From the NCBI GenBank assembly GCA_964590105.1, contig CAZPYM010000002.1, positions 218,697 through 282,696 of the forward strand: a stretch of DNA of 64,000 nucleotides. Direction: 5' to 3'. This DNA comes from an uncultured Gammaproteobacteria bacterium. GTDB lineage: Bacteria; Patescibacteriota; Patescibacteriia; UBA11705; JABHMO01. Shown piece after piece: positions 1-54,027 of this stretch. Position 1 is the first letter of the stretch; the number at the start of each line of letters is the position of its first letter. The notes under the pieces were generated by a model. The model searched no databases, had not been told where the DNA came from, and was given only the letters and a program-made list of their open reading frames with translations. Made by a program: the position numbers and the translations under genes.

Positions 1-1712
1 TCAATTTGCCAGTAAATTTGGTTATTACTCAGCTTATGAAAAGCGGAATCATGGCCTCGTTAAATCAGCGGATTGATTTTGACACGGCGGCGATCATTGC
101 GGGCGACCTTGGCTATGAGGCGACGCAGATTGACCTCAATGAAAAATTTGATGTTGATAAATCTAAATTAATTTCTGATACAATTGCCGCTGAAAAAAAA
201 GAAACATTGGTAAATAGAGCTCCGATTGTAGTGGTCATGGGACATGTGGATCATGGCAAAACCAAACTCCTCGATGCTATCAGAAAAACTGACGTGGTCG
301 GGGGCGAGGCAGGCGGAATTACCCAGCACATTGGCGCTTATCAGGTGACGCGGCAAAATAGATTAATAACTTTCATTGATACTCCGGGTCATGAAGCTTT
401 TACGGCAATGCGTTCGAGGGGAGCCAAAGTGGCGGACGTGGCAATTTTAGTTGTCGCCGCGAACGAAGGTGTTAAGCCGCAAACGATTGAAGCGTTGAAA
501 ATTGCGCAAGAAGCCGATATCCCGATTTTAGTGGCGGTAAATAAAATAGATTTGCCGGATGCCAATCCTGAAAAAGTAAAACAAGAGTTAGCAAAATATA
601 ATTTAATGACAGAGGAATGGGGCGGCAAGACAATTTTCGTGGAAATTTCCGCCAAGTTTAATAAAAACATTGAAGCTGTTTTGGAAAATGTTTTATTGCT
701 CGCGGACATGAACCAGGACAGATTGAAAGCAAATCCGGCAGGAGAATTTGTGGGTAGTGTTATTGAGTCTCACGTAGATTCTGGCGCTGGACCGGTCGCG
801 ACTGTGCTGGTTCGCAATGGAACATTGCGCGTTGGCGATTATTTGGTGATTAGCGGCGTACTATATGGAAAAATTAGAGGCATGAAAAATTATCGCGGCA
901 GAGAATTGCAAGTAGCGGGGCCCGCGGTACCGGCCAGAATTTTGGGTCTGAAAGTGGCTCCCAAAGTCGGCGATGTGTTGGAGGCAGTAGATGATCCCAA
1001 AAAAGCGAAAAAATCAAAGACCTACCGAATGCAACAGGAAGAAACATTTATTAAACAAAAATTAGTTGAAGAAAATGGCGATCAGGATAGTGCAGACATA
1101 ACAAAATTGAATATAATTTTGCGTACGGATGTCCTTGGGTCGCAAGAAGCGATTATTGAATCATTAAAAAAATTTGAAACAGCGGATATTAAAATTGATA
1201 TAGTTTCAAAAGGACTGGGTAGAATTACTGAGAATGACGTGCTAAGTGCAGAATCAACCGGCGCCATGTTATTGGGATTTAATGTTTTGCCAAGTCAGCA
1301 GGCCGAAAGATTGGCTCAAGATAAAAAAGTAGCAATTCAAACATACAAAATTATTTATGAATTGATTGATGCGGTGAAAAAGGGTTTGCGTCAATTAATT
1401 AAACCAAAAGTCATCAGACGCGACTTGGGTAAGGTCACGGTACTTGCGATATTTAAAAAAACCAATGACTTACAAGTGGTCGGCGGCAAGGTTAAAGATG
1501 GCAGAATAGAACCGGGCGCAAAAGTCGCGGTATTGCGCCAAGAAGCTTTCATTACATCAGGCAAGATTACTGGACTCCAAGTCGGCAAGCAGGAAGTAAA
1601 AGATTGTGTAAAGGGGCAAGAGTGCGGGATAAAGTTTGTCGGGCAGCCTCTGATTGAAGTCGGCGATGTTTTGGATGTTTATCAGGAGGAGGAGAAATAT
1701 AAGAAAATATAA
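1..1712 (+). CDS. infB: translation initiation factor IF-2. The ORF is open to the window edge, so the 5' end is probably truncated.
   Basis: G-domain motifs VMGHVDHGKTKLLD, DTPGHEAF and NKID are present, preceded by an IF2_N-like segment. Confidence 0.9.
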   Translation, partial: NLPVNLVITQLMKSGIMASLNQRIDFDTAAIIAGDLGYEATQIDLNEKFDVDKSKLISDTIAAEKKETLVNRAPIVVVMGHVDHGKTKLLDAIRKTDVVGGEAGGITQHIGAYQVTRQNRLITFIDTPGHEAFTAMRSRGAKVADVAILVVAANEGVKPQTIEALKIAQEADIPILVAVNKIDLPDANPEKVKQELAKYNLMTEEWGGKTIFVEISAKFNKNIEAVLENVLLLADMNQDRLKANPAGEFVGSVIESHVDSGAGPVATVLVRNGTLRVGDYLVISGVLYGKIRGMKNYRGRELQVAGPAVPARILGLKVAPKVGDVLEAVDDPKKAKKSKTYRMQQEETFIKQKLVEENGDQDSADITKLNIILRTDVLGSQEAIIESLKKFETADIKIDIVSKGLGRITENDVLSAESTGAMLLGFNVLPSQQAERLAQDKKVAIQTYKIIYELIDAVKKGLRQLIKPKVIRRDLGKVTVLAIFKKTNDLQVVGGKVKDGRIEPGAKVAVLRQEAFITSGKITGLQVGKQEVKDCVKGQECGIKFVGQPLIEVGDVLDVYQEEEKYKKI

Positions 1713-8712: not shown

Positions 8713-9486
8713 ATGAATAATGAACAACTTCTAAATAAGGCAGGTCTTGATGAAACCGAGTCCAAAGTTTATTTGGCTCTTTTGCAATTAGGACCGGCAA
8801 CAGTTAGCGAAATTACCCAGAAGGCCGAAGTTACCAGAACACTGGGTTATCATGTTTTAAATAAATTGGGGATATACGGCTTGGTTGATCAAACTTCGGG
8901 GCATGGACAAAAAGTGGTTTACAGCGCCGAGCATCCTCAGCGGTTAGTTCAATTTGTAAAAAATAAAAAAAATAAGTGGGAACGTAATCTAAAAGAAATT
9001 GAACAGAATTTGCCTGATTTAGTTTTATTGTTTAAGATAGCAGAAAAGCCGACTATTCGTTATCAGCAAGGCGTTGAAGGTTTAAAAAATATTTATGAAG
9101 AAACGTTAGCTTCAACTACGGAAATTTTATCCATTCTTGACGTGGAAGGTTGGGCTAAGCCGGAATTTAAAAATTGGGGAGAGAATTATAATTTTGAACG
9201 GAGTAAACGCAAAATTCATGAGAAAGTTTTACTCTTGGCCACCGAGGTGGCGCGTGATTGGATGAAGAATTTTAAGGGTTCATTTAAATACACTGAATAT
9301 CGTTGGATAAATAAAGAAGAATTGCCGGGGATTGAAGATTTTGGCGGTGAAATAAATATTTACGAAAATAAAGTTGTTATGGCGTTATTAAAACCCGTGC
9401 CAATGGGCGTGATAATAGAAAGTAGGGCATTGGCCAATTTGTTGCGCGGACTGCACAGCCTTGCATGGAACGCTAAAAAAAGTTAG
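8713..9486 (+). CDS. TrmB-family HTH transcriptional regulator (paralog 1 of 4)
   Basis: N-terminal LDETESKVYLALLQLGPATVSEITQKAEVTRTLGYHVLNKLGIYGLV is a TrmB-type winged HTH. Confidence 0.65.
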   Translation: MNNEQLLNKAGLDETESKVYLALLQLGPATVSEITQKAEVTRTLGYHVLNKLGIYGLVDQTSGHGQKVVYSAEHPQRLVQFVKNKKNKWERNLKEIEQNLPDLVLLFKIAEKPTIRYQQGVEGLKNIYEETLASTTEILSILDVEGWAKPEFKNWGENYNFERSKRKIHEKVLLLATEVARDWMKNFKGSFKYTEYRWINKEELPGIEDFGGEINIYENKVVMALLKPVPMGVIIESRALANLLRGLHSLAWNAKKS

Positions 9487-12436: not shown

Positions 12437-12620
12437 CACGGATTACAGATTTGCAGATTTGATGGCGGCAGGACAAGAAGTCACTTGAGGATTTCGTTAA
12501 ATTAGGGTAGAATGTAGATACAAGACGAATTTACGAGTTTTTACAAATATAACAAATAAACGGAGACAAGATTAATTTGTGATATTTGTTATTATTTGTA
12601 AATTTGTTTTACTTGTTAAT

Positions 12621-15449
12621 ATGAAAAAATACGATCACAAAAAAATTGAACGCAAGTGGCAGAAGTTTTGGGAAGATAACAAGTTTTATCGGGCTGAAGA
12701 CGGTTCACCAAAAGAAAAATATTACTGCCTGATTGAATTTCCTTATCCGTCCGGCGACGGACTGCACGTCGGCCATGTGCGCAGTTATACAGCGCTCGAT
12801 ATTATTGCCCGCAAAAAAAGAATGCAGGGATTTAATGTTTTGTACCCGATTGGCTGGGACGCCTTTGGATTGCCCGCAGAAAATTACGCCATCAAAACAG
12901 GTAAACACCCGACTATTATTACCAAGGAAAATGTAAAAGTTTTCACCAAGCAGATCAAAAGCTTGGGGATCAGCTTTGATTGGTCGCGCGAGATTAATAC
13001 TACTGATTCTGTCTATTACAAATGGACGCAGTGGATATTTCTTCAATTATATAAACATGGTTTGGCTTACAAAAAGAAAATGCCGATCAATTGGTGCCCG
13101 AGCTGCAAAATTGGTTTGGCCAATGAAGAAGTTATTGACGGTAAGTGCGAGCGTTGCGGCGCGGAAACGGAGAAAAGAGAATTGGAACAGTGGATGTTAA
13201 AAATTACCGCTTATGCCGATCGCCTGATTGAGGACTTGGAAACAGTTGAATATCTGGAAAAAATAAAAACTCAGCAGATCAATTGGATAGGACGAAGCGA
13301 GGGCGCGGAGGTGGATTTTCAAGTGAAAAATTTCAAAGATAATATTCGCGTTTTTACCACTAGGCCGGATACTTTGTTTGGCGCCACTTTTATAGTTTTG
13401 TCGCCCGAACATGAGTTGGTCAATGAAATTACAACCAAGGAGCAAGAGGCTGCAGTATTAAAGTATCAGGAAGAAGCGCGAAAAAAATCTGACTTGGAAA
13501 GGACTGAACTTCAAAAAGAAAAAACAGGTGTATTTACCGGCGCTTATGCTATTAACCCGGTTAATAAAAAGGAAATTCCGATTTGGATTGCCGATTATGT
13601 AATGATGAGTTATGGCACCGGCGCTATCATGGCCGTCCCCGCGCATGATGAAAGAGATTGGGCTTTTGCAAAAAAATATAAACTGGCAATTACCCTGGTT
13701 TTAATGCCTTTTATCCGGGCGCAAGAAAAAGACTTGCCGCGAGTAGACAAGAAAACAGTAAAACGAAATAATGTAATCGTTGTTTTAAAGCATTGGGCAG
13801 AAGAAAAATATTATTGTTTGGATTGGAAAAAATTCGGCTGGACTTCTTTTGTGGTCGGAGGAGTGGAAGATGGCGAAGACTTTGAAACAGCAGCCATTCG
13901 AGAAATGAAAGAAGAATCTGGCTATCAAAATATTAGATCAATAAAACGTTTGGGCGGGCAGATCGCCACAGAATTTTTTGCCCGGCATAAAGATGTTAAT
14001 CGCGAGACGATTATCGAGGGTTATTATATTGAACTTCAGGATGGTGAACGTATTTTGCCGGCGGAAGAAGATGTTCAGTATCACGATGGTCTATGGGTGG
14101 ACAAAGACAAAGTAAACACTTTTATTAATTTGGAAAATCATGCTTGGTATTTCGATATATTAATGAAAGGGGAACAGGTTTATTCCGGCGACGGCATCAA
14201 TATTAATTCTGATTTTTTGGATGGCCTAAAAACTGCTGACGCAAAGAAAAAGATTTCAGCTTGGCTAGAAAAAGAAGGGCTTGGCAAAAAATCGACTAAT
14301 TATCATCTCCGCGACTGGGTTTTTTCGCGCCAGCATTACTGGGGCGAGCCGATTCCAATGGTTTATTGCGTTGAGTGCGGCTGGCAGCCGATTGATGAAA
14401 AAGAACTGCCATTAAAATTGCCAATGGTAAAAAAATATGAGCCGACCGACACGGGCGAGTCGCCATTAGCTTCGATCGAAAAATGGGTAAATACAATTTG
14501 TCCAAAATGCAAAGGTAGAGCAAGACGAGAAACTGACACTATGCCAAATTGGGCTGGGTCGAGCTGGTATTTTCTGCGTTATGTTGATCCGGAAAACAAT
14601 GAAAAACTGGCTGACTTGGAAAAATTAAAATATTGGACACCTGTTGATTTGTATAATGGCGGCATGGAACACACAACTCTGCATTTGTTGTATTCCAGGT
14701 TTTGGCACAAATTCTTGTATGACATTGCGGCTGTGCCGACGCCGGAGCCGTATCAAAAGCGCGTTTCGCACGGCATGATTCTGGCGTCTGACAATCAAAA
14801 AATGTCAAAGTCCCGTGGCAATGTGCTGAATCCGGACCAAATTGTCGAAGAATATGGCGCCGATGCTCTGCGTCTTTATGAAATGTTCATGGGGCCGTAT
14901 GATCAGGCGGTGGCCTGGGACACAAATGGTCTGCGCGGTATAAAAAAGTTTTTGGATCGGGTTTGGGCGGCTGAAAACAGAGAAGATGACAAGGGGGTGA
15001 CTGCGCTACTTCACAAAACAATTAAAAAAGTTACTGAAGACATTGATAAAATGCATTTTAACACGGCAGTCGCGGCCATGATGATTCTCCTTAATAAAAT
15101 TCAGGAAGCCGGTTGTTCTAAACAAACATTTGAAAAGTTTTTGATTATGCTCAGTCCTTTTGCCCCGCATCTTGCCGAAGAAAAATGGAGCGCGCTGGGG
15201 AATGAGGCGGGTATTTCTTTGCAAAAATGGCCGCAGTTTGACGAAGCGCTGGTTATTGATGAGCAAATTCAAATTCCGGTGCAAATCAATGGCAAAGTGC
15301 GTGACAAACTTTTGGTCAGCGCAGATATTGTCGAGGAAGAGCTTAAAAAGTTGGCTCTGGCTAGCGACAAAGTGCAGAAACATTTGGCTGAACGGCAAGT
15401 GAAAAAAATTATTTATGTGACAGGCAGGTTGATCAGCATAGTTGTATAA
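12621..15449 (+). CDS. leuS: leucyl-tRNA synthetase carrying an internal Nudix-box-containing insertion
   Basis: HIGH-like HVGHVRSY, KMSKS, and the conserved blocks AVPAHDERDWAFA and LRDWVFSRQHYWGEPIP. The insert at about nt 13685-14290 contains GGVEDGEDFETAAIREMKEESGY. Confidence 0.9.
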   Translation: MKKYDHKKIERKWQKFWEDNKFYRAEDGSPKEKYYCLIEFPYPSGDGLHVGHVRSYTALDIIARKKRMQGFNVLYPIGWDAFGLPAENYAIKTGKHPTIITKENVKVFTKQIKSLGISFDWSREINTTDSVYYKWTQWIFLQLYKHGLAYKKKMPINWCPSCKIGLANEEVIDGKCERCGAETEKRELEQWMLKITAYADRLIEDLETVEYLEKIKTQQINWIGRSEGAEVDFQVKNFKDNIRVFTTRPDTLFGATFIVLSPEHELVNEITTKEQEAAVLKYQEEARKKSDLERTELQKEKTGVFTGAYAINPVNKKEIPIWIADYVMMSYGTGAIMAVPAHDERDWAFAKKYKLAITLVLMPFIRAQEKDLPRVDKKTVKRNNVIVVLKHWAEEKYYCLDWKKFGWTSFVVGGVEDGEDFETAAIREMKEESGYQNIRSIKRLGGQIATEFFARHKDVNRETIIEGYYIELQDGERILPAEEDVQYHDGLWVDKDKVNTFINLENHAWYFDILMKGEQVYSGDGININSDFLDGLKTADAKKKISAWLEKEGLGKKSTNYHLRDWVFSRQHYWGEPIPMVYCVECGWQPIDEKELPLKLPMVKKYEPTDTGESPLASIEKWVNTICPKCKGRARRETDTMPNWAGSSWYFLRYVDPENNEKLADLEKLKYWTPVDLYNGGMEHTTLHLLYSRFWHKFLYDIAAVPTPEPYQKRVSHGMILASDNQKMSKSRGNVLNPDQIVEEYGADALRLYEMFMGPYDQAVAWDTNGLRGIKKFLDRVWAAENREDDKGVTALLHKTIKKVTEDIDKMHFNTAVAAMMILLNKIQEAGCSKQTFEKFLIMLSPFAPHLAEEKWSALGNEAGISLQKWPQFDEALVIDEQIQIPVQINGKVRDKLLVSADIVEEELKKLALASDKVQKHLAERQVKKIIYVTGRLISIVV

Positions 15450-15543: not shown

Positions 15544-16182
15544 TCAGCTGACAGAAGTAGCGGGTCTGACCCGGATGACAATATCCACAAGTTCAGCCAG
15601 CTTGACGCTCATTTCGTATTCTTCGACCGTTTTCACGGCCTGTTTTTGAAGTTCGTCAGCTTCCGGCGGCTGGCCGCCAGAAGATTCGGACTGAAACGTG
15701 CTATCCGGCTGGCCAAAGACGGCCGCTTCTTTGACCTCGCGAGTTTCGCGATGCTCTGAAGCTTGAGCGCTCTTGTCAGTGAGGCCGGCCGGTCCGCAAA
15801 TAATCTGCGAATTCCTGTCGGCCAAACCGGCCGGTCCACACACGGTCTTCTGTTTGCCGCCGGCAAGGCCGGCGGGACCGCACATGATCTTCTGTTCGCC
15901 ACCGGCAAGGCCGGCAGGTCCGCAAATGATCTTTTGTTCGCCGCCGACAAGCCCGGCCGGTCCGCAAACGATCTGCGAATTTCTGTCGGCCAATCCGGCG
16001 GGACCGCACATGATCTTCTGTTCGCCGCCGACAAGACCGGCGGGACCGCACATGATCCCGTCATGTGCGCGGCTTTCGAGCGCCGCGAGCAATTCGCTGA
16101 TTTTTTCGTAGGATCGTGACATCATGAGGGCAATAAGCGCGAAACGCGCATCTTCTTTTGAAATGTGGGACTCTGCATTCAT
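15544..16182 (-). CDS. Cys/Gly/Pro tandem-repeat protein with seven 13-aa CGPAGL(V/A)GGEQKI-type repeats.
   Basis: SD ggaggag precedes the second ATG (16182). Seven in-frame 39-bp repeats follow. No signal peptide. Confidence 0.55.
   Translation of the reverse strand: MNAESHISKEDARFALIALMMSRSYEKISELLAALESRAHDGIMCGPAGLVGGEQKIMCGPAGLADRNSQIVCGPAGLVGGEQKIICGPAGLAGGEQKIMCGPAGLAGGKQKTVCGPAGLADRNSQIICGPAGLTDKSAQASEHRETREVKEAAVFGQPDSTFQSESSGGQPPEADELQKQAVKTVEEYEMSVKLAELVDIVIRVRPATSVS
15773..16060. repeat. 39-bp tandem repeat, about 7 copies, inside the coding sequence.
   Basis: ccggccggtccgca(a/c)a(t/c)ga tc... units; contiguous, with no spacers. Confidence 0.8.
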
Positions 16183-16555
16183 CTTTTTCTCCTCCATTCG
16201 GAGATGAATGATTTTGGGGGCTCATCATTTGAGCCGCTACCAATAAATTTGTTTTCAAGTAACAGTTTTCCTAATTAAATTATATAGTATATTAAGGCAA
16301 AGAAAAGATGTTTTGGGGAAAACTTTTCCTTTGTTTTGTCAAATTGAACAAAATAAACCAAAGGAATTTTATCTAATTGTTATTTGAAAAGTGTTAGTGA
16401 ATTTTGACAGTTAAAAACAAAAATTAGATTTATATTAGAAAAAGATGTCAGCCTTTGCCAACAGAATTGGTGGATAAAAAACAGGATTTGTTGTTAATAA
16501 CTGTTAACACATTTTCTTGTTGTTATGCTACAATAAAGTGGTAATTAGTACAAAT

Positions 16556-17305
16556 ATGTTAACACAGGAACTTCTAAGCATTGGTTTGTCAAATAAAGAA
16601 GCGGAAGTGTATTTGTCAGCGCTGCAGCTCGGATATTCATCAGTTCAGGAAATTGCCGCCAAATCAAGCATTAATCGAACAACGGCCTATACTCATATTA
16701 AAAATTTAATTGGCCGAGGTCTTTTGAGCGCAGTTGAAAAAAATGGCAAAGTTTATTACGTGGCGGAAAGACCGGACAAGCTTCAATATATTTACGAACA
16801 GCAGGAAAAGGAAGTCAAGCGCCGGCGGGAGATGCTCCAAAAAATAATGCCGCAGCTGGAATCAATTTACAACTTGGCCCAAGACAGACCCTCGGTGCGC
16901 TATTATAATTATACTGACAAAAACGATTTGGAATTAATCAGGCGGGAAATTGAGGAATTGCGCGCTGATGAAATATACAATATTTTTAATCAGGATCTTT
17001 TTGCCGATTATATAAACCGCCTGCACGTTCAAAATATTTTGGATTCAGTAAAGAAATTCAAAGTCCTGTACATTTCAAAAAATAAAATCATTGACCGTCG
17101 CGTTCAGCCGCTCGTGCAAGACGAAAAATTTCGTTTGAAATTTTTACCGGAAGCTAAGTTTAATTTTTTGTCTGAAGTGCTGATTGCCAATCAAAATGTT
17201 TACATTGCCGGTAACGGCGCCTGGATGATTATTTCCGATAAATTATTTTCACAAACTTTAACTTTACTGTTCCACGCATTGTGGGGAATAGCGGAAGACA
17301 TATAA
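16556..17305 (+). CDS. TrmB-family HTH transcriptional regulator (paralog 2)
   Basis: LSNKEAEVYLSALQLGYSSVQEIAAKSSINRTTAYTHIKNLIGRGLL. Confidence 0.65.
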   Translation: MLTQELLSIGLSNKEAEVYLSALQLGYSSVQEIAAKSSINRTTAYTHIKNLIGRGLLSAVEKNGKVYYVAERPDKLQYIYEQQEKEVKRRREMLQKIMPQLESIYNLAQDRPSVRYYNYTDKNDLELIRREIEELRADEIYNIFNQDLFADYINRLHVQNILDSVKKFKVLYISKNKIIDRRVQPLVQDEKFRLKFLPEAKFNFLSEVLIANQNVYIAGNGAWMIISDKLFSQTLTLLFHALWGIAEDI

Positions 17306-17310
17306 ATTAT

Positions 17311-18054
17311 ATGCTGGAAAAATCTCTGCGCGATTTTGGCCTCACAGACAAAGAAACAAAAGTTTATCTAGCTGCCCTGGAAATGGGAATATCTTCGATC
17401 CAGGAATTGTCCAGAAAGTCAGAAGTTAATCGCGCGACTACCTATATTCAAGTTGAATCCCTAAAAAACAAAGGGTTAGTTAGTGTAATCGAAAAAGATA
17501 AAAAAACTTTGATCATGGCCGAAAAGCCGCAAAGGATTTTGGAGATTTTGGATAAAAGAAAAAATGAAATTGAGTTAATTGAAAAAGGAATTAGCAAGCT
17601 AATGCCGGATTTGGAAGCGATTTACAATGTCAAAGCCGACCGTCCGCGCGTGCGCTTTATGGACACGCAGGCTGGATTTAATTTTTTTCTTGAAGAGATT
17701 ATGAAGCGCCGGCCGGAGGTTATTTTTAATTTATTGCCACAGGCGCATCAGCCGGTGTCGGATATTTTTTGCCGGCTGGTCAAGAAGGTCGGCCAGATAA
17801 AAATCGTCTATATGCTGCCGGAAAATGCAAATGACACCTTCAAAAGATTTTCTAATGTGCATTCCCGCTTTTATAAAATTGACAATTACATGCTGGAAAT
17901 ATTGATGTTCGAAAATCTTGTTGTGATGAACAAGCCTATTTTGCAAGAGAAAAAAAGTACAGCAATCATTATTGAGGACAAAATTTTTTTCCAAAGCTTT
18001 CATACTTTGTTCAATATATTCTGGGACGCCAGTGTGCCAGTTCTAAATGCGTGA
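17311..18054 (+). CDS. TrmB-family HTH transcriptional regulator (paralog 3), tandem to paralog 2.
   Basis: LTDKETKVYLAALEMGISSIQELSRKSEVNRATTYIQVESLKNKGLV. Confidence 0.65.
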   Translation: MLEKSLRDFGLTDKETKVYLAALEMGISSIQELSRKSEVNRATTYIQVESLKNKGLVSVIEKDKKTLIMAEKPQRILEILDKRKNEIELIEKGISKLMPDLEAIYNVKADRPRVRFMDTQAGFNFFLEEIMKRRPEVIFNLLPQAHQPVSDIFCRLVKKVGQIKIVYMLPENANDTFKRFSNVHSRFYKIDNYMLEILMFENLVVMNKPILQEKKSTAIIIEDKIFFQSFHTLFNIFWDASVPVLNA

Positions 18055-41294: not shown

Positions 41295-41613
41295 TAAATT
41301 GGTTCTGAACAAGCAGAACCGTTGCTCTTTGCCTTTTGGCGGAGAGAGGAAAGTCCGGACTTTCAGTCATTTTTTGACGCGGGTAGCAGGTAATTCCTGT
41401 CAATCGTGAGATAGAGGTGCGAGCAGAGACGCCTGGCAAAGTAATTTGTCAGGAACCCCTCGGGGTTAGTCTTGGTGGAAACATCAAGAGTGAAACGGCT
41501 AAACCCTTGCCTGAAAGCAAACCCAAGTTTGGTAGGGTGCTTGAGTCGGAGAGTGATCTTCGGCCCAGATAGATAACGGCTAAAACAGAATCCGGCTTAC
41601 TCGCTTGTTCAGG
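41295..41613 (+). ncRNA. rnpB: RNase P RNA (bacterial type A)
   Basis: GAGGAAAGTCCGGACTT and ACAGAATCCGGCTTAC conserved blocks. The 5' ctgaacaagc pairs with the 3' gcttgttcag (P1). Confidence 0.85.
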
Positions 41614-41659
41614 ACTTTTTTATTATCACGAATTGCCCGAATTGGCGCGAAAAAATATA

Positions 41660-51147: not shown

Positions 51148-54027
51148 ATGACTAAATTCACCAAACTATTTATTTTATCAACAGTGGTTTTAATATTACT
51201 GCAATCTTTTAATTTAATATATTTTGTTTCAGTTCCGACTGCTCTGGCCTCTGCGAAACAGTGCGACTGTGCAGGAACTTCATATCCGCCGGCTGATCCG
51301 TGCACTGCCGCATGCGTAGGTAAGCTTCCTTTGGTTACGGACGTGTGCGTTTGCGATGACGGAACAGTAGAAGATATAAAATTGCCGACTGATACTTGTG
51401 CTGTCTTGTGCCCGGTGGCGCCCCCGCCTACGCCTAAGCCTACGTCCCCTGCTCCTTCAGGAACACCAAAATCCACTCCGTCGGCGGTTCCAAAGGCTGG
51501 CTTTAATTTGGAAGAAGCGAAGATCAATATTCAGTTCGGCGATCTGCCTACGAGTTTTACGGCCGTGGATGAGGCGCCGTGCAAATGCACCCCCGCGGAA
51601 AAAGCAAAAGATGCAAAATATTGCGAGGATTATGAAAAGAAAATGTGCATCCGTATTCCCTGGGTTGCTCAATATCTGAATGCGGTTTATCGCTATGGCG
51701 TGACGCTCGGATCATTGCTTGCTGTATTAATGTTGATGATCGGCGGGGTGATGTACATGATGGGCGGACTGAATCAGACCATGATTTCCAAAGCCAAGAG
51801 CATGATGTCCGGCGCGGTTTTAGGTTTAATCTTATTGCTCGGCACTTATGTTTTGTTGAATACTATTAACCCGAATTTAATAAAATTGGAACCGATAAAG
51901 ATTGAGGTAGTCAGAGAGAAGGGGATTTCTTCCTTTACTTTTTGTAATGAGGTGCCAGCAGCTAAGTACAAGGTGACTGATAATACGTGTGGCCAGGAAG
52001 GTTCGTATGAAATAAAAGATAAAAGTATTGACGAAGAACCTGGCAAGTGTATTGGCTCTATATGTAAGCCATCGGCAGATGGGCACAAACAATGGTGTTT
52101 GCCGTCACCAGAAGACAAAGCGATGAAAGAAAATAAAGTTACTTGTATTGACGCCGCGGTTTGGGGATATCTGAAGTATGATGATGGCAGGTTTTTGGAT
52201 TCGATAGGTTTATATGCTTTGGGAGGATATAGTGATGCGGATTGTGTAGCATTAGATAGTGACGCTACTTCCACCTGCGCCGACCCGATTAAAGATAACC
52301 CAGGAGACGGCGATAAAGTATATTATATTAGATGGAGTGATATAAAGGCCGCTGTGGCGAGTAAAAAATCGAGTGCAAAAGATTCATATATGCTGATGAT
52401 TGAACTTAATGATACCGGGGCGTCCAACGCCGCTGTCACCAATTCCAAAATTGTTGTTGCTACCCAGGCGGGCATGAGTTGGATTGGCTTTGACGGAACA
52501 ATTGACGATGAGTATTATGTCGCTCTAAATCCGGAAAATCCTATTAGCACAGAAAAAGATAATGAGGCTTATAATGGTATATGGATAGAGCCTTGCGACA
52601 CTACTGTTGTTTGGATGAGTCCCAAGGGGGAGGGCTGGATGTCCGGCGGACTCCCAGCGGAAAAAGGGAAAAAGTGGAAAACAATGAGGGCTTATGATGT
52701 TGAAACTAGTGGTATTAGATTAGATATTGATTCAAAAGATTTTCAAGAGGACGCGGATATTGATTGTTCTTTAGCTGATAAAATGTTCGGTGCTTCATTG
52801 AAGGTTGGAGCAATATGTGGAAGTAATAAGGAGTGTCTTAGCGATGATTGTGAACTGGAGCAGGGATCAAAGAGATGTGAATGTAATGAAGATGAAGATT
52901 GCAAAAATGAAGTTGCTCCGGGAGATCCGCAAAAAGACAAGTTAGTTTGCGCCACCTCTTGGAATATTTGGAATAGTTGTATTGTGGGTAAGGCAATTGG
53001 CGCATCTTGTTCGGACAATAGCCAGTGCAACAGCGGTAGTTGTTCCGGCGGAAAGTGCGAATGTTCAAAAAAAGAGGATTGTGCATATCAGCCTTATAGT
53101 ACAGCACCGGATTTTTTCAAGAAGAAAAAGATAGACGGAGTTTTGTATGGTTATGCCTGCATTAAAAATATATTTTCGGCAAATGAGTGTAAGTATAAGA
53201 GAGAGCAAGGTGAAGCCTGTGATAAGGCTGAGCAATGTATCAGCAATAATTGTGTGGGTGGATCTTGTATGTGCGATGACGATGCTGACTGTCCAGAAGG
53301 ATCATATTGCGAAACCGTGACCGGTGCTTGTATGTTGCAGCATCTTAATTTGGAAATATGTGACGAGGGAAATAACAAATCTTGTTATAAGGGCATGGAT
53401 TGCGAGGAAGACCACTGGTATGGTGAGGGAACTACAGAAACGCGATGCGAATGTAACAATAATGAAGATTGTGGGCCGGATGCCGTTTGTATTGACATTG
53501 AGGATGGTTGCGGTTGGAATTATTGTCTTGCGAACGACGTGGGTGCGCCTGGTGTGCCATATGGCTATAGCTCTGTTGGTGATTCAACTGTAGTTGCGTC
53601 GCAAAAATATTGGGGACTTTGTGATGCTGATTCCGATTGCGCCGGTACAGCTTTGTCGCCGGGTGATTGTATAACAGATTGGGGAAAGAATAATTGTAAT
53701 GCTTGCAAGAGCACTGATGGAACAGCTTTGATAGGGGGAAAATGTCCTAGTTCTGATAAAGATGCTTGTGGCTATAAGCTTTTTTGTACAGATGAGTGGA
53801 GCACAAATATTTGTGCTCCCGCGTCAGCTATCGCCTGCGGCATCAACGATAGTTTGTGCGTTGGTGGTGGATGGAAAAAGGGAACTTGCGAGGGAACCCT
53901 TTGCGATTGTGGTGGCGATGATGACTGTTCGGCTGGTTATCTGTGTGCAAATAATACGTCCGGTGAGTATAACGGCAACGATATGTGCATCCCTGATTCA
54001 TACAAAGATATTGCTGATAACCTTTAA
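51148..54027 (+). CDS. secreted 959-aa cysteine-rich protein with an embedded T4SS-pilin-like (PF18895-type) transmembrane hairpin
   Basis: Signal peptide. IGGVMYMMGGLNQTMISKAKSMMSGAVLGLILLLGTYVLLNTINPNLI matches the GG..YM.GGN...AK...IGL...IVNxI pilin pattern. About 720 aa of CxxxxC/CxSxxC modules follow. Confidence 0.6.
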   Translation: MTKFTKLFILSTVVLILLQSFNLIYFVSVPTALASAKQCDCAGTSYPPADPCTAACVGKLPLVTDVCVCDDGTVEDIKLPTDTCAVLCPVAPPPTPKPTSPAPSGTPKSTPSAVPKAGFNLEEAKINIQFGDLPTSFTAVDEAPCKCTPAEKAKDAKYCEDYEKKMCIRIPWVAQYLNAVYRYGVTLGSLLAVLMLMIGGVMYMMGGLNQTMISKAKSMMSGAVLGLILLLGTYVLLNTINPNLIKLEPIKIEVVREKGISSFTFCNEVPAAKYKVTDNTCGQEGSYEIKDKSIDEEPGKCIGSICKPSADGHKQWCLPSPEDKAMKENKVTCIDAAVWGYLKYDDGRFLDSIGLYALGGYSDADCVALDSDATSTCADPIKDNPGDGDKVYYIRWSDIKAAVASKKSSAKDSYMLMIELNDTGASNAAVTNSKIVVATQAGMSWIGFDGTIDDEYYVALNPENPISTEKDNEAYNGIWIEPCDTTVVWMSPKGEGWMSGGLPAEKGKKWKTMRAYDVETSGIRLDIDSKDFQEDADIDCSLADKMFGASLKVGAICGSNKECLSDDCELEQGSKRCECNEDEDCKNEVAPGDPQKDKLVCATSWNIWNSCIVGKAIGASCSDNSQCNSGSCSGGKCECSKKEDCAYQPYSTAPDFFKKKKIDGVLYGYACIKNIFSANECKYKREQGEACDKAEQCISNNCVGGSCMCDDDADCPEGSYCETVTGACMLQHLNLEICDEGNNKSCYKGMDCEEDHWYGEGTTETRCECNNNEDCGPDAVCIDIEDGCGWNYCLANDVGAPGVPYGYSSVGDSTVVASQKYWGLCDADSDCAGTALSPGDCITDWGKNNCNACKSTDGTALIGGKCPSSDKDACGYKLFCTDEWSTNICAPASAIACGINDSLCVGGGWKKGTCEGTLCDCGGDDDCSAGYLCANNTSGEYNGNDMCIPDSYKDIADNL

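Follow-up and report, generated by a model that had tools for sequence, protein, structure and literature searches.

What would a nucleotide hydrolase be doing inside the proofreading domain of a tRNA synthetase? The question is raised by leuS, the gene for a bacterial-type leucyl-tRNA synthetase (LeuRS), in a 64,000-nucleotide stretch of contig CAZPYM010000002.1 (assembly GCA_964590105.1, GTDB Patescibacteriota; this whole stretch is called the window below). An earlier note, made from the letters of the window, had read a Nudix signature in an overlong segment of this LeuRS and proposed that a Nudix domain is inserted there in frame. The tRNA synthetases are among the most conserved enzymes, and bacterial ones rarely carry extra catalytic domains. 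We find that the segment is a bona fide, independently folding Nudix fold nested in LeuRS, and that the architecture is common in bacteria of the candidate phyla radiation (CPR, or Patescibacteria), to which the ultra-small window organism belongs, and in DPANN archaea. Our preferred reading, to which we would give a probability of roughly 0.55, is that the domain is an active hydrolase of polyphosphate nucleotides whose tethering to an aminoacyl-tRNA synthetase (aaRS) is selected. The features that carry the argument are the following, with amino acid (aa) numbers counted along the 956-aa mechanical open reading frame (ORF) that opens at GTG 12579.

12621..15449, plus strand: leuS, bacterial-type LeuRS, 942 aa from ATG 12621, with its stop codon at 15447-15449
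13704..14171, plus strand: nested Nudix domain, about 156 aa (aa 376-531), in place of a short surface loop of the CP1 editing domain
13716-14165, plus strand: the insert as defined by hidden Markov model (HMM), aa 380-529
13857..13925, plus strand: Nudix box GGVEDGEDFETAAIREMKEESGY, aa 427-449, with predicted catalytic or metal-binding residues E433, R441, E442, E445 and E446

The conserved LeuRS blocks MAVPAHDERDWAFAKKYKL (aa 351-369, nt 13629-13685) and YHLRDWVFSRQHYWGEPIP (aa 575-593, nt 14301-14357) are separated by 205 residues, close to the figure of about 200 given in the earlier note. In an alignment with Thermus thermophilus LeuRS (PDB 1h3n), query residues 15-375 correspond to residues 1-362 and query residues 532-749 to residues 374-592, and about 156 residues (aa 376-531) occupy the place of 11 in the T. 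thermophilus enzyme. The match of the editing-domain model PF13603 in a Pfam scan is split in two by the Nudix segment, which places the insertion inside the CP1 editing domain. The box lies at exactly the positions where it had been read and conforms to GX5EX7REUXEEXGU, its two U residues being Met and Tyr in place of Ile, Leu or Val; a search of all six reading frames of the window for G.{5}E.{7}RE.{2}EE.G yields a single match, and 200 codon-shuffled windows yield none. The Pfam NUDIX model PF00293 matches aa 420-512 with E = 7.4e-11; its gathering cut-off of 21.1 bits is exceeded both by the whole protein (42.6 bits) and by the segment when excised (46.0 bits). An AlphaFold2 model of the insert, computed from an alignment of 38 homologous inserts, is rich in strands, has a predicted local distance difference test score (pLDDT) of 96.7 and a predicted template modelling score (pTM) of 0.90, and shows the box as the loop-helix-loop of a Nudix fold, with its helix at insert residues 60-72. 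In a model of the full-length LeuRS (pLDDT 89.4, pTM 0.78) the Nudix segment has pLDDT values of 89-97. Foldseek, run with the insert against the PDB, reported 459 matches (E <= 0.001), of which the 50 listed are almost all Nudix hydrolases. The earlier note had suggested a NUDIX model search, a LeuRS alignment and a structure prediction as checks; they returned a match above the gathering cut-off, an insertion delimited to aa 376-531 within the editing domain and a confident separate Nudix fold inside the LeuRS model, and together with the fold search, the many homologues and the independent assemblies described below they bear out an in-frame insertion.

The same evidence disposes of the suspicion that the domain is an artefact, be it a linker peculiar to the lineage in which REx2EE arose by chance, an assembly with a frameshift or a chimeric join, or an intein. 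The ORF at 12579..15449 (plus strand) is unbroken, and the identical 956-aa protein occurs in four independent assemblies, from NCBI (a 594-kb contig), JGI (a 170-kb contig), Logan (SRR8437217) and ENA (ERZ27248939); a frameshift or a chimera made in assembly is thereby excluded. The Pfam scan of the LeuRS listed no intein or Hint family at E <= 1, and the alpha/beta/alpha-sandwich Nudix fold explains the whole insert, leaving the intein reading unsupported; we rejected it, and the continuous frame described in the earlier note, neither split gene nor pseudogene, stands. HMM, fold and conservation evidence, the motif's absence from the shuffled windows and at least 154 species genomes with the insert at one site complete a case by which this explanation is already refuted. 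A recent mobile-element origin at the window locus was likewise considered and rejected: the insert boundaries show no meaningful direct or inverted repeats, and the GC content of the insert resembles that of its flanks.

The insert is also conserved where a hydrolase should be. Across 258 aligned copies of the domain, numbered by position in the box, G1 is kept in 98%, E7 in 82% (Q in a further 10%), R15 in 84%, E16 in 98%, E19 in 97%, E20 in 99% and G22 in 95%, and several of the exceptions are a W for a G that derives from mistranslated UGA codons. Mean pairwise identity is 37% for the Nudix domains and 55% for the LeuRS core. Catalytic glutamates kept in 97-99% of domains that are otherwise about 37% identical argue for retained catalysis on a fast-evolving scaffold, and by this measure the box is evidently under strong purifying selection across hundreds of lineages.

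How widespread the architecture is was determined from protein clusters and from genomes. PF00293 is present in the majority of the 120 best LeuRS clusters; these have lengths of 939-1004 aa and full-length identities of 54-69%, and UniRef100_A0A0G1GK41, from a Nomurabacteria genome, is a public example. Against an HMM of 794 positions built from 26 insert-less relatives, the Nudix insert falls at position 365 in essentially all insert-bearing clusters. A scan of one genome per GTDB species, using two peptide patterns drawn from an 11-sequence alignment, gave at least 154 confirmed loci, a lower bound since both patterns are narrow. Among 80 loci retained from these 154, 77 have a Nudix-bearing frame with LeuRS flanks and the domain at site 365/366. 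Their titles include Paceibacteria/Parcubacteria, Moranbacteria, Magasanikbacteria, Uhrbacteria, Komeilibacteria, Liptonbacteria, Berkelbacteria, Saccharibacteria-labelled genomes and Gracilibacteria metagenome-assembled genomes (MAGs). The Gracilibacteria LeuRS-Nudix genes contain 41-50 in-frame UGA codons, which fits genetic code 25.

Some loci carry DPANN labels (Woesearchaeota, Pacearchaeota, Nanoarchaeota: L006, L011-L013, L016, L017, L020-L024, L028, L030, L042, L049, L051 and L059). These genomes encode a bacterial-type LeuRS with the same Nudix insert and a divergent C-terminus, where the HMM match stops at about position 735-760 of 794. Locus L012 is flanked by a tRNA-intron endonuclease (397-906, minus strand), an archaeal hallmark that supports an archaeal host, and the pattern suggests transfer of the LeuRS-Nudix gene between CPR and DPANN. 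The LeuRS-Nudix architecture is common in both groups, is not unique to the window genome and is unremarked in public databases.

Three observations on the records themselves came out of this survey. The genes at L050, L067, L074, L077, L078, L079, P0140 and P0150 have 17-50 in-frame TGA codons across the set and are open only under code 25 (UGA = Gly); where such genes are translated in databases, W appears at conserved Gly positions, for example 'WWVEENE...ETWY' in the Nudix box. Several insert-bearing LeuRS (P0046, P0047, P0076, P0091, P0105) are annotated as 'class I tRNA ligase family protein' or 'RdgB/HAM1 family non-canonical purine NTP pyrophosphatase', names that annotation pipelines have given these LeuRS genes because of their inserts. 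MAG titles of Gammaproteobacteria, Bdellovibrionales, Clostridium, Firmicutes, Bacilli, Burkholderiales, Spirochaetota and Pseudomonadota stand on loci with a CPR-type LeuRS-Nudix (L027, L037, L039-L041, L046, L048, L055-L058, L065, L068, L070 and L080), and these titles look like mislabels.

The Nudix subfamily itself leads back to tRNA synthetases. A word-indexed protein search with the insert alone as query found nothing, a limit of its sensitivity, and an exhaustive HMMER search gave 349 representatives at E <= 0.001. In a survey of the flanks of the best 150 of these 349 representatives (50% clusters), phmmer identified LeuRS flanks in 103; the remaining 47 include at least four LeuRS fragments recognised by Pfam, one prolyl-tRNA synthetase (ProRS) and roughly 30 apparently free-standing proteins of 150-200 aa. 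Other LeuRS positions of the domain are about 210-245 in the HMM, ahead of the editing domain or where it begins, and behind the Zn module; some LeuRS hold two or three copies (for example P0121, confirmed by Pfam). Copies at these other sites are up to 60-70% identical to those at site 365, and free-standing members are up to about 60% identical to nested ones, which points to movement both between sites and between the nested and the free state. In ProRS the domain lies between the anticodon-binding domain and the C-terminal Zn domain, in a small clade of five clusters (P0211, P0274-P0277) from JGI, Logan and NCBI whose nearest relatives are DPANN ProRS. Gene context was read for nine free-standing representatives: one on a JGI contig (P0148) ends 2 nt before a LeuRS that has its own Nudix insert, one (P0191, loci L086 and L087) ends 3 nt before an insert-less LeuRS, and one (P0164, L083-L085) lies 4 nt downstream of fpg/mutM in three contigs. 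On these flanks and contexts the subfamily is, as far as gene arrangement can tell, tied to tRNA synthetases.

Nudix is not the only guest that LeuRS has accepted. In a clade of relatives (P0024, P0025, P0033, P0039, P0076 and others), a Ham1/ITPase domain of about 200 aa (PF01725, E = 6.5e-62) sits at HMM site 639 in addition to the Nudix insert at its own site, in the place of the leucine-specific domain of the T. thermophilus enzyme. HMM site 239 holds inserts of Ser_hydrolase (PF06821) and ASCH (PF04266) type, and behind the Zn module there is a weak match to HAD (PF13419, under the Pfam cut-off). The Nudix site 365 is occupied in P0037 and P0038 by an alternative domain of about 155 aa, for which we found no Pfam family and no convincing PDB sequence match; a 201-aa segment also stands at this site. 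The relatives with other nested domains or extra Nudix copies include P0044, P0094, P0096, P0037, P0038, P0049 and P0121, and most of the guests in LeuRS are small nucleotide or metabolite hydrolases.

The host enzyme appears undisturbed by its guest. The LeuRS scores 1019.8 bits against NCBIfam TIGR00396 (leuS_bact; cut-off 548.4) in two stretches that flank the insert, and matches T. thermophilus LeuRS 1h3n with E = 1.4e-229 (phmmer). Its true start is likely ATG 12621 (MKKYDHKK), which aligns with Met1 of the T. thermophilus protein. The landmarks of the synthetic and editing sites are these.

12765..12776, plus strand: HIGH signature HVGH of the synthetic site, aa 63-66
13356..13373, plus strand: Thr-rich editing-site motif TTRPDT of the CP1 editing domain, aa 260-265
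13614..13658, plus strand: editing-site motif GTGAIMAVPAHDERD including the conserved editing Asp, aa 346-360, with AHDERD at aa 355-360
14172..14300, plus strand: C-terminal rest of the CP1 editing domain (EQVYSGDGININSDFLDG...), where the alignment resumes at T. thermophilus residue 374
14799..14813, plus strand: KMSKS signature, aa 741-745

The C-terminal rest of CP1 carries the second PF13603 stretch and matches the PDB editing-domain chains 4k47 and 3pz0. Across 121 Nudix-bearing LeuRS, the first and last His of HIGH are kept in 121 and 120 sequences, respectively (and in 33 of 33 insert-less LeuRS), the T/T/R/D/T positions of TTRPDT in 119-120, the H, D, R and D of the second editing motif in 120-121, and the K-M-S-K of KMSKS in 119-121. 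HIGH, KMSKS, TTRPDT and GTG..AHD.RD are kept alike in the 121 Nudix-bearing and the 33 insert-less LeuRS. The window LeuRS has no leucine-specific domain before KMSKS, T. thermophilus residues 593-636 having no counterpart in the alignment with 1h3n. With its synthetic and editing motifs intact the enzyme should still aminoacylate and edit; it looks complete and working, and is expected to charge and proofread tRNA-Leu as usual.

As for what the guest might hydrolyse, we compared 38 family members with NCBIfam models. The curated families matched by most members are NudB (37 of 38), RppH (36), YtkD (29) and also NudE and NudI, all far below their cut-offs, with best E-values for RppH and YtkD of about 1e-8 to 1e-10. 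The best RppH models reach 18-25 bits against cut-offs of 116-259, short of an RppH/NudH equivalog; the MutT 8-oxo-(d)GTP diphosphatase models (NF008044, TIGR00586, NF052459) are weakly matched by 9-14 of the 38 members and give the window domain 13 bits against 148. Since the guest fails every curated subfamily test (RppH, MutT, NudE and others), the only name it can bear is 'Nudix hydrolase, subfamily unassigned'. Structural neighbours among the matches listed include Ap4A (diadenosine tetraphosphate) and Ap6A (diadenosine hexaphosphate) hydrolases, Rv2985/MutT1, NudI, NudB and RppH. These neighbouring enzymes act on triphosphate or polyphosphate nucleotides, not on nucleoside diphosphate sugars, NADH or CoA. 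The signature of diadenosine polyphosphate (ApnA) hydrolases is an aromatic residue (Tyr) about 16-18 residues downstream of the box; the insert has F91-F92 there, 17-18 residues after the box, and the family consensus is F[FY] or Y[FY], an aromatic at this place not being specific to ApnA hydrolases.

The reading that we prefer takes the domain to be an active Mg2+-dependent pyrophosphohydrolase, as the conserved box residues R15, E16, E19 and E20 suggest, and its substrate would be a nucleotide with a polyphosphate chain. Two candidates may be considered. The substrates could be dinucleoside polyphosphates, Ap4A and its kin, which aaRS make as a side product of the aminoacyl-adenylate; this would explain the association with two unrelated aaRS. 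In cells the aaRS are a main source of Ap4A, which Nudix enzymes break down asymmetrically (PMC10148737). Clearance of Ap4A, one of the roles offered by the earlier note, is a plausible function. Alternatively the substrates could be non-canonical or damaged purine nucleoside triphosphates (NTPs), which would explain the co-insertion of Ham1 and the free-standing member linked to fpg. With either candidate the tethering would be selected rather than accidental, and would lend the synthetase a third activity, nucleotide house-cleaning.

A broader form of this proposal, which we hold tentatively and at somewhat less than even odds, is that the subfamily is a dedicated aaRS accessory enzyme of CPR and DPANN. 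Repeated, independent recruitment would have placed it at several sites of LeuRS (up to three copies per protein), once in ProRS and next to leuS, with shuttling between nested and free states and between bacteria and archaea; its catalytic activity would be a selected third one of the host, and LeuRS would serve as a scaffold for nucleotide-repair enzymes (Nudix, Ham1, HAD, ASCH). Under this proposal the task may be destruction in cis of the dinucleoside polyphosphates that the aaRS makes, sanitising of purine NTPs or processing of tRNA 5′ ends.

Several results weigh against our preferred reading, and many of them speak for a passive hitch-hiker, an active house-cleaning Nudix enzyme (MutT-like or NTP-ase-like) with no mechanistic tie to LeuRS. 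On this view the CP1 loop and the other LeuRS sites merely tolerate small hydrolase genes, which settled there in the reduced genomes of CPR and DPANN organisms and gain constitutive expression from an essential gene. All NCBIfam equivalog scores are far under their cut-offs, and the structural neighbours are 13-23% identical and of mixed specificities. Insert-less relatives 66-73% identical to the window LeuRS carry an 8-12-residue loop, 'GGDIxxxAF', at the site, and across insert-less LeuRS the loop ranges from 8 to 30 aa; relatives as close as 70-73% identity that do without the insert indicate that Nudix is dispensable for LeuRS function. A rough neighbour-joining tree of the core has about 15 presence/absence changes at site 365 with 'present' at the root, so that the distribution, read through this tree, shows an insert that is old, widespread and repeatedly lost or re-inserted. 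The Nudix domain also diverges faster than the host core: it is typically a sharp low-identity island between well-conserved flanks, its identity correlates weakly with that of the core (Spearman 0.24), and some pairs have flanks 93-100% identical around an island of 13-47%. Exchange of the cassette by recombination is not claimed, most of the discordance being explicable by faster, lineage-specific divergence of the insert (e.g. P0002). The unrelated domains at the same or nearby LeuRS sites (Ham1, Ser_hydrolase, ASCH, HAD and the unassigned domain) fit a loop that is merely permissive. Most free-standing homologues examined are not beside leuS and have uninformative contexts, one is coupled to fpg instead, and the window insert itself has unremarkable GC and no flanking repeats that we could find. 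Yet a hitch-hiker does not readily account for independent insertions of the same subfamily at several LeuRS sites and in ProRS, for about 70% of the closest representatives lying inside LeuRS, or for two of nine free-standing representatives standing directly upstream of leuS, one of them beside an insert-less LeuRS, which is far above expectation for an unlinked gene. We regard passive hitch-hiking as unlikely, while taking it seriously.

The remaining explanations carry less weight. The CP1 domain contacts the tRNA acceptor end in LeuRS-tRNA complexes, and an RppH/YtkD-like 5′-pyrophosphohydrolase or decapping enzyme placed there by LeuRS (and by ProRS) could remove a 5′-triphosphate or cap. 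The RppH and YtkD matches of 36 and 29 of the 38 members, the presence of RppH, AvrM14 and other decapping Nudix enzymes among the structural neighbours, and the ASCH insert, of RNA-binding type, in one relative are in line with such an activity. We nevertheless find it improbable, as no score comes near its family cut-off, Ham1 and HAD as co-inserted domains point to small-molecule substrates, and the window encodes RNase P RNA, with which tRNAs should already carry 5′-monophosphates. A module without catalysis, structural, regulatory or nucleotide-sensing in the manner of NrtR and AraR, might modulate LeuRS editing or aminoacylation; a role as nucleotide sensor had been raised by the earlier note. 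The Nudix-fold regulators NrtR, AraR and NadQ are indeed among the structural matches, and a minority of copies is substituted at E7 or R15 (for example the P0211 box). Free-standing 160-aa homologues exist, however, and the near-invariance of E16, E19 and E20 (97-99% of the 258 copies) disfavours a purely regulatory sensor, making a non-catalytic role very improbable in our estimate. The earlier note also considered hydrolysis of mis-activated aminoacyl-adenylates, an extra pre-transfer editing step in whose favour one may cite that Nudix lies within the editing domain and is associated with two families of aaRS. Nudix chemistry targets a diphosphate linkage (nucleoside diphosphate-X), an aminoacyl-adenylate is an acyl-phosphate anhydride, and the known aminoacyl-adenylate hydrolases belong to the HIT family; as the adenylate is not a nucleoside diphosphate-X, a Nudix enzyme is chemically unlikely to catalyse the reaction. 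LeuRS keeps its canonical CP1 editing site intact, close relatives can dispense with the domain, and Nudix is also present in a type of ProRS and at sites that have nothing to do with editing, so that we give this last explanation almost no credence.

Comparison with known systems sets the architecture apart. The window LeuRS shares the class I core, HIGH, KMSKS and the CP1 motifs with the canonical bacterial enzymes (E. coli, T. thermophilus; TIGR00396; PDB 1h3n, 3zgz/4aq7), has their anticodon-binding and C-terminal domains, and is collinear with T. thermophilus LeuRS except at the insert; it differs in the 150-aa Nudix domain where those have an 8-12-aa CP1 loop and in the absent leucine-specific domain. 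The small monomeric Nudix hydrolases of polyphosphate nucleotides, such as RppH/NudH, the Aquifex Ap4A hydrolase 3i7u, T. thermophilus Ndx1 (Ap6A), M. tuberculosis Rv2985/MutT1, NudB, NudI and E. faecalis 2azw, are free enzymes, whereas the window domain is nested and 14-23% identical to them. A precedent for a Nudix domain fused to an ATP-adenylyl-transfer enzyme is NadM-Nudix (NMN adenylyltransferase/Nudix hydrolase, PRK05379), which is weak in the profile scans and differs in being an end-to-end fusion with a partner from NAD metabolism. The Nudix part of NadM-Nudix is an ADP-ribose pyrophosphatase. Among class Ia aaRS the curated precedent for an extra enzyme domain is isoleucyl-tRNA synthetase with an N-acetyltransferase (NCBIfam NF040702, ileS_w_GNAT), where both host synthetase and guest fold are different; the window protein reaches 80.8 bits (cut-off 1999), and does so solely by way of the synthetase core that the two have in common. 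Nearest of all are the Ham1/RdgB-bearing Patescibacteria LeuRS (e.g. MDF1497753.1, named 'RdgB/HAM1 family non-canonical purine NTP pyrophosphatase' by NCBI), of the same lineage and with the same Nudix at site 365, which differ from the window protein in their additional Ham1 domain of about 200 aa at the leucine-specific-domain position.

A full-text literature search, in which coverage of subscription journals is incomplete, found nothing on a Nudix or any other catalytic domain nested in the LeuRS editing domain, and we are aware of no published case in which a second, unrelated hydrolase is nested in the proofreading domain of a tRNA synthetase. The earlier note's impression that the architecture is undescribed therefore holds for the literature searched; the sequences themselves were already public and are widespread in CPR and DPANN.

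The surroundings of leuS in the window give no functional clue: its neighbours encode RNase HII, a CHAP-domain protein, TrmB-like regulators and a repeat protein. A 217-aa ORF directly downstream on the opposite strand (15544-16197, minus) has no Pfam match and contains a 42-nt tandem repeat at 15827-16057 (5.5 copies), which encodes the 14-residue peptide repeat CGPAGL[AV]GGEQKI[MI]. Three paralogous TrmB-like helix-turn-helix regulators lie within 10 kb (8713-9486, 16517-17305 and 17281-18054, plus strand), two of them overlapping head-to-tail just downstream of leuS. The RNase P RNA is of class A (41306-41615, plus strand; 125 bits) and covers model positions 1-367 in 310 nt, a reduced version. 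A 959-aa ORF at 51148-54027 (plus strand) matches no Pfam family at E <= 0.001.

If the nested Nudix domain is active and coupled to its host, aminoacylation would be linked directly to the turnover of Ap4A-type alarmones or of damaged nucleotides, and this in organisms that are unable to make nucleotides and depend on salvage. The range of guests in LeuRS (Nudix, Ham1, HAD, serine-hydrolase and ASCH domains) suggests a general route by which ultra-reduced genomes may pack metabolite repair into essential genes, and the pattern common to CPR and DPANN would offer a marker for gene flow between these episymbionts.

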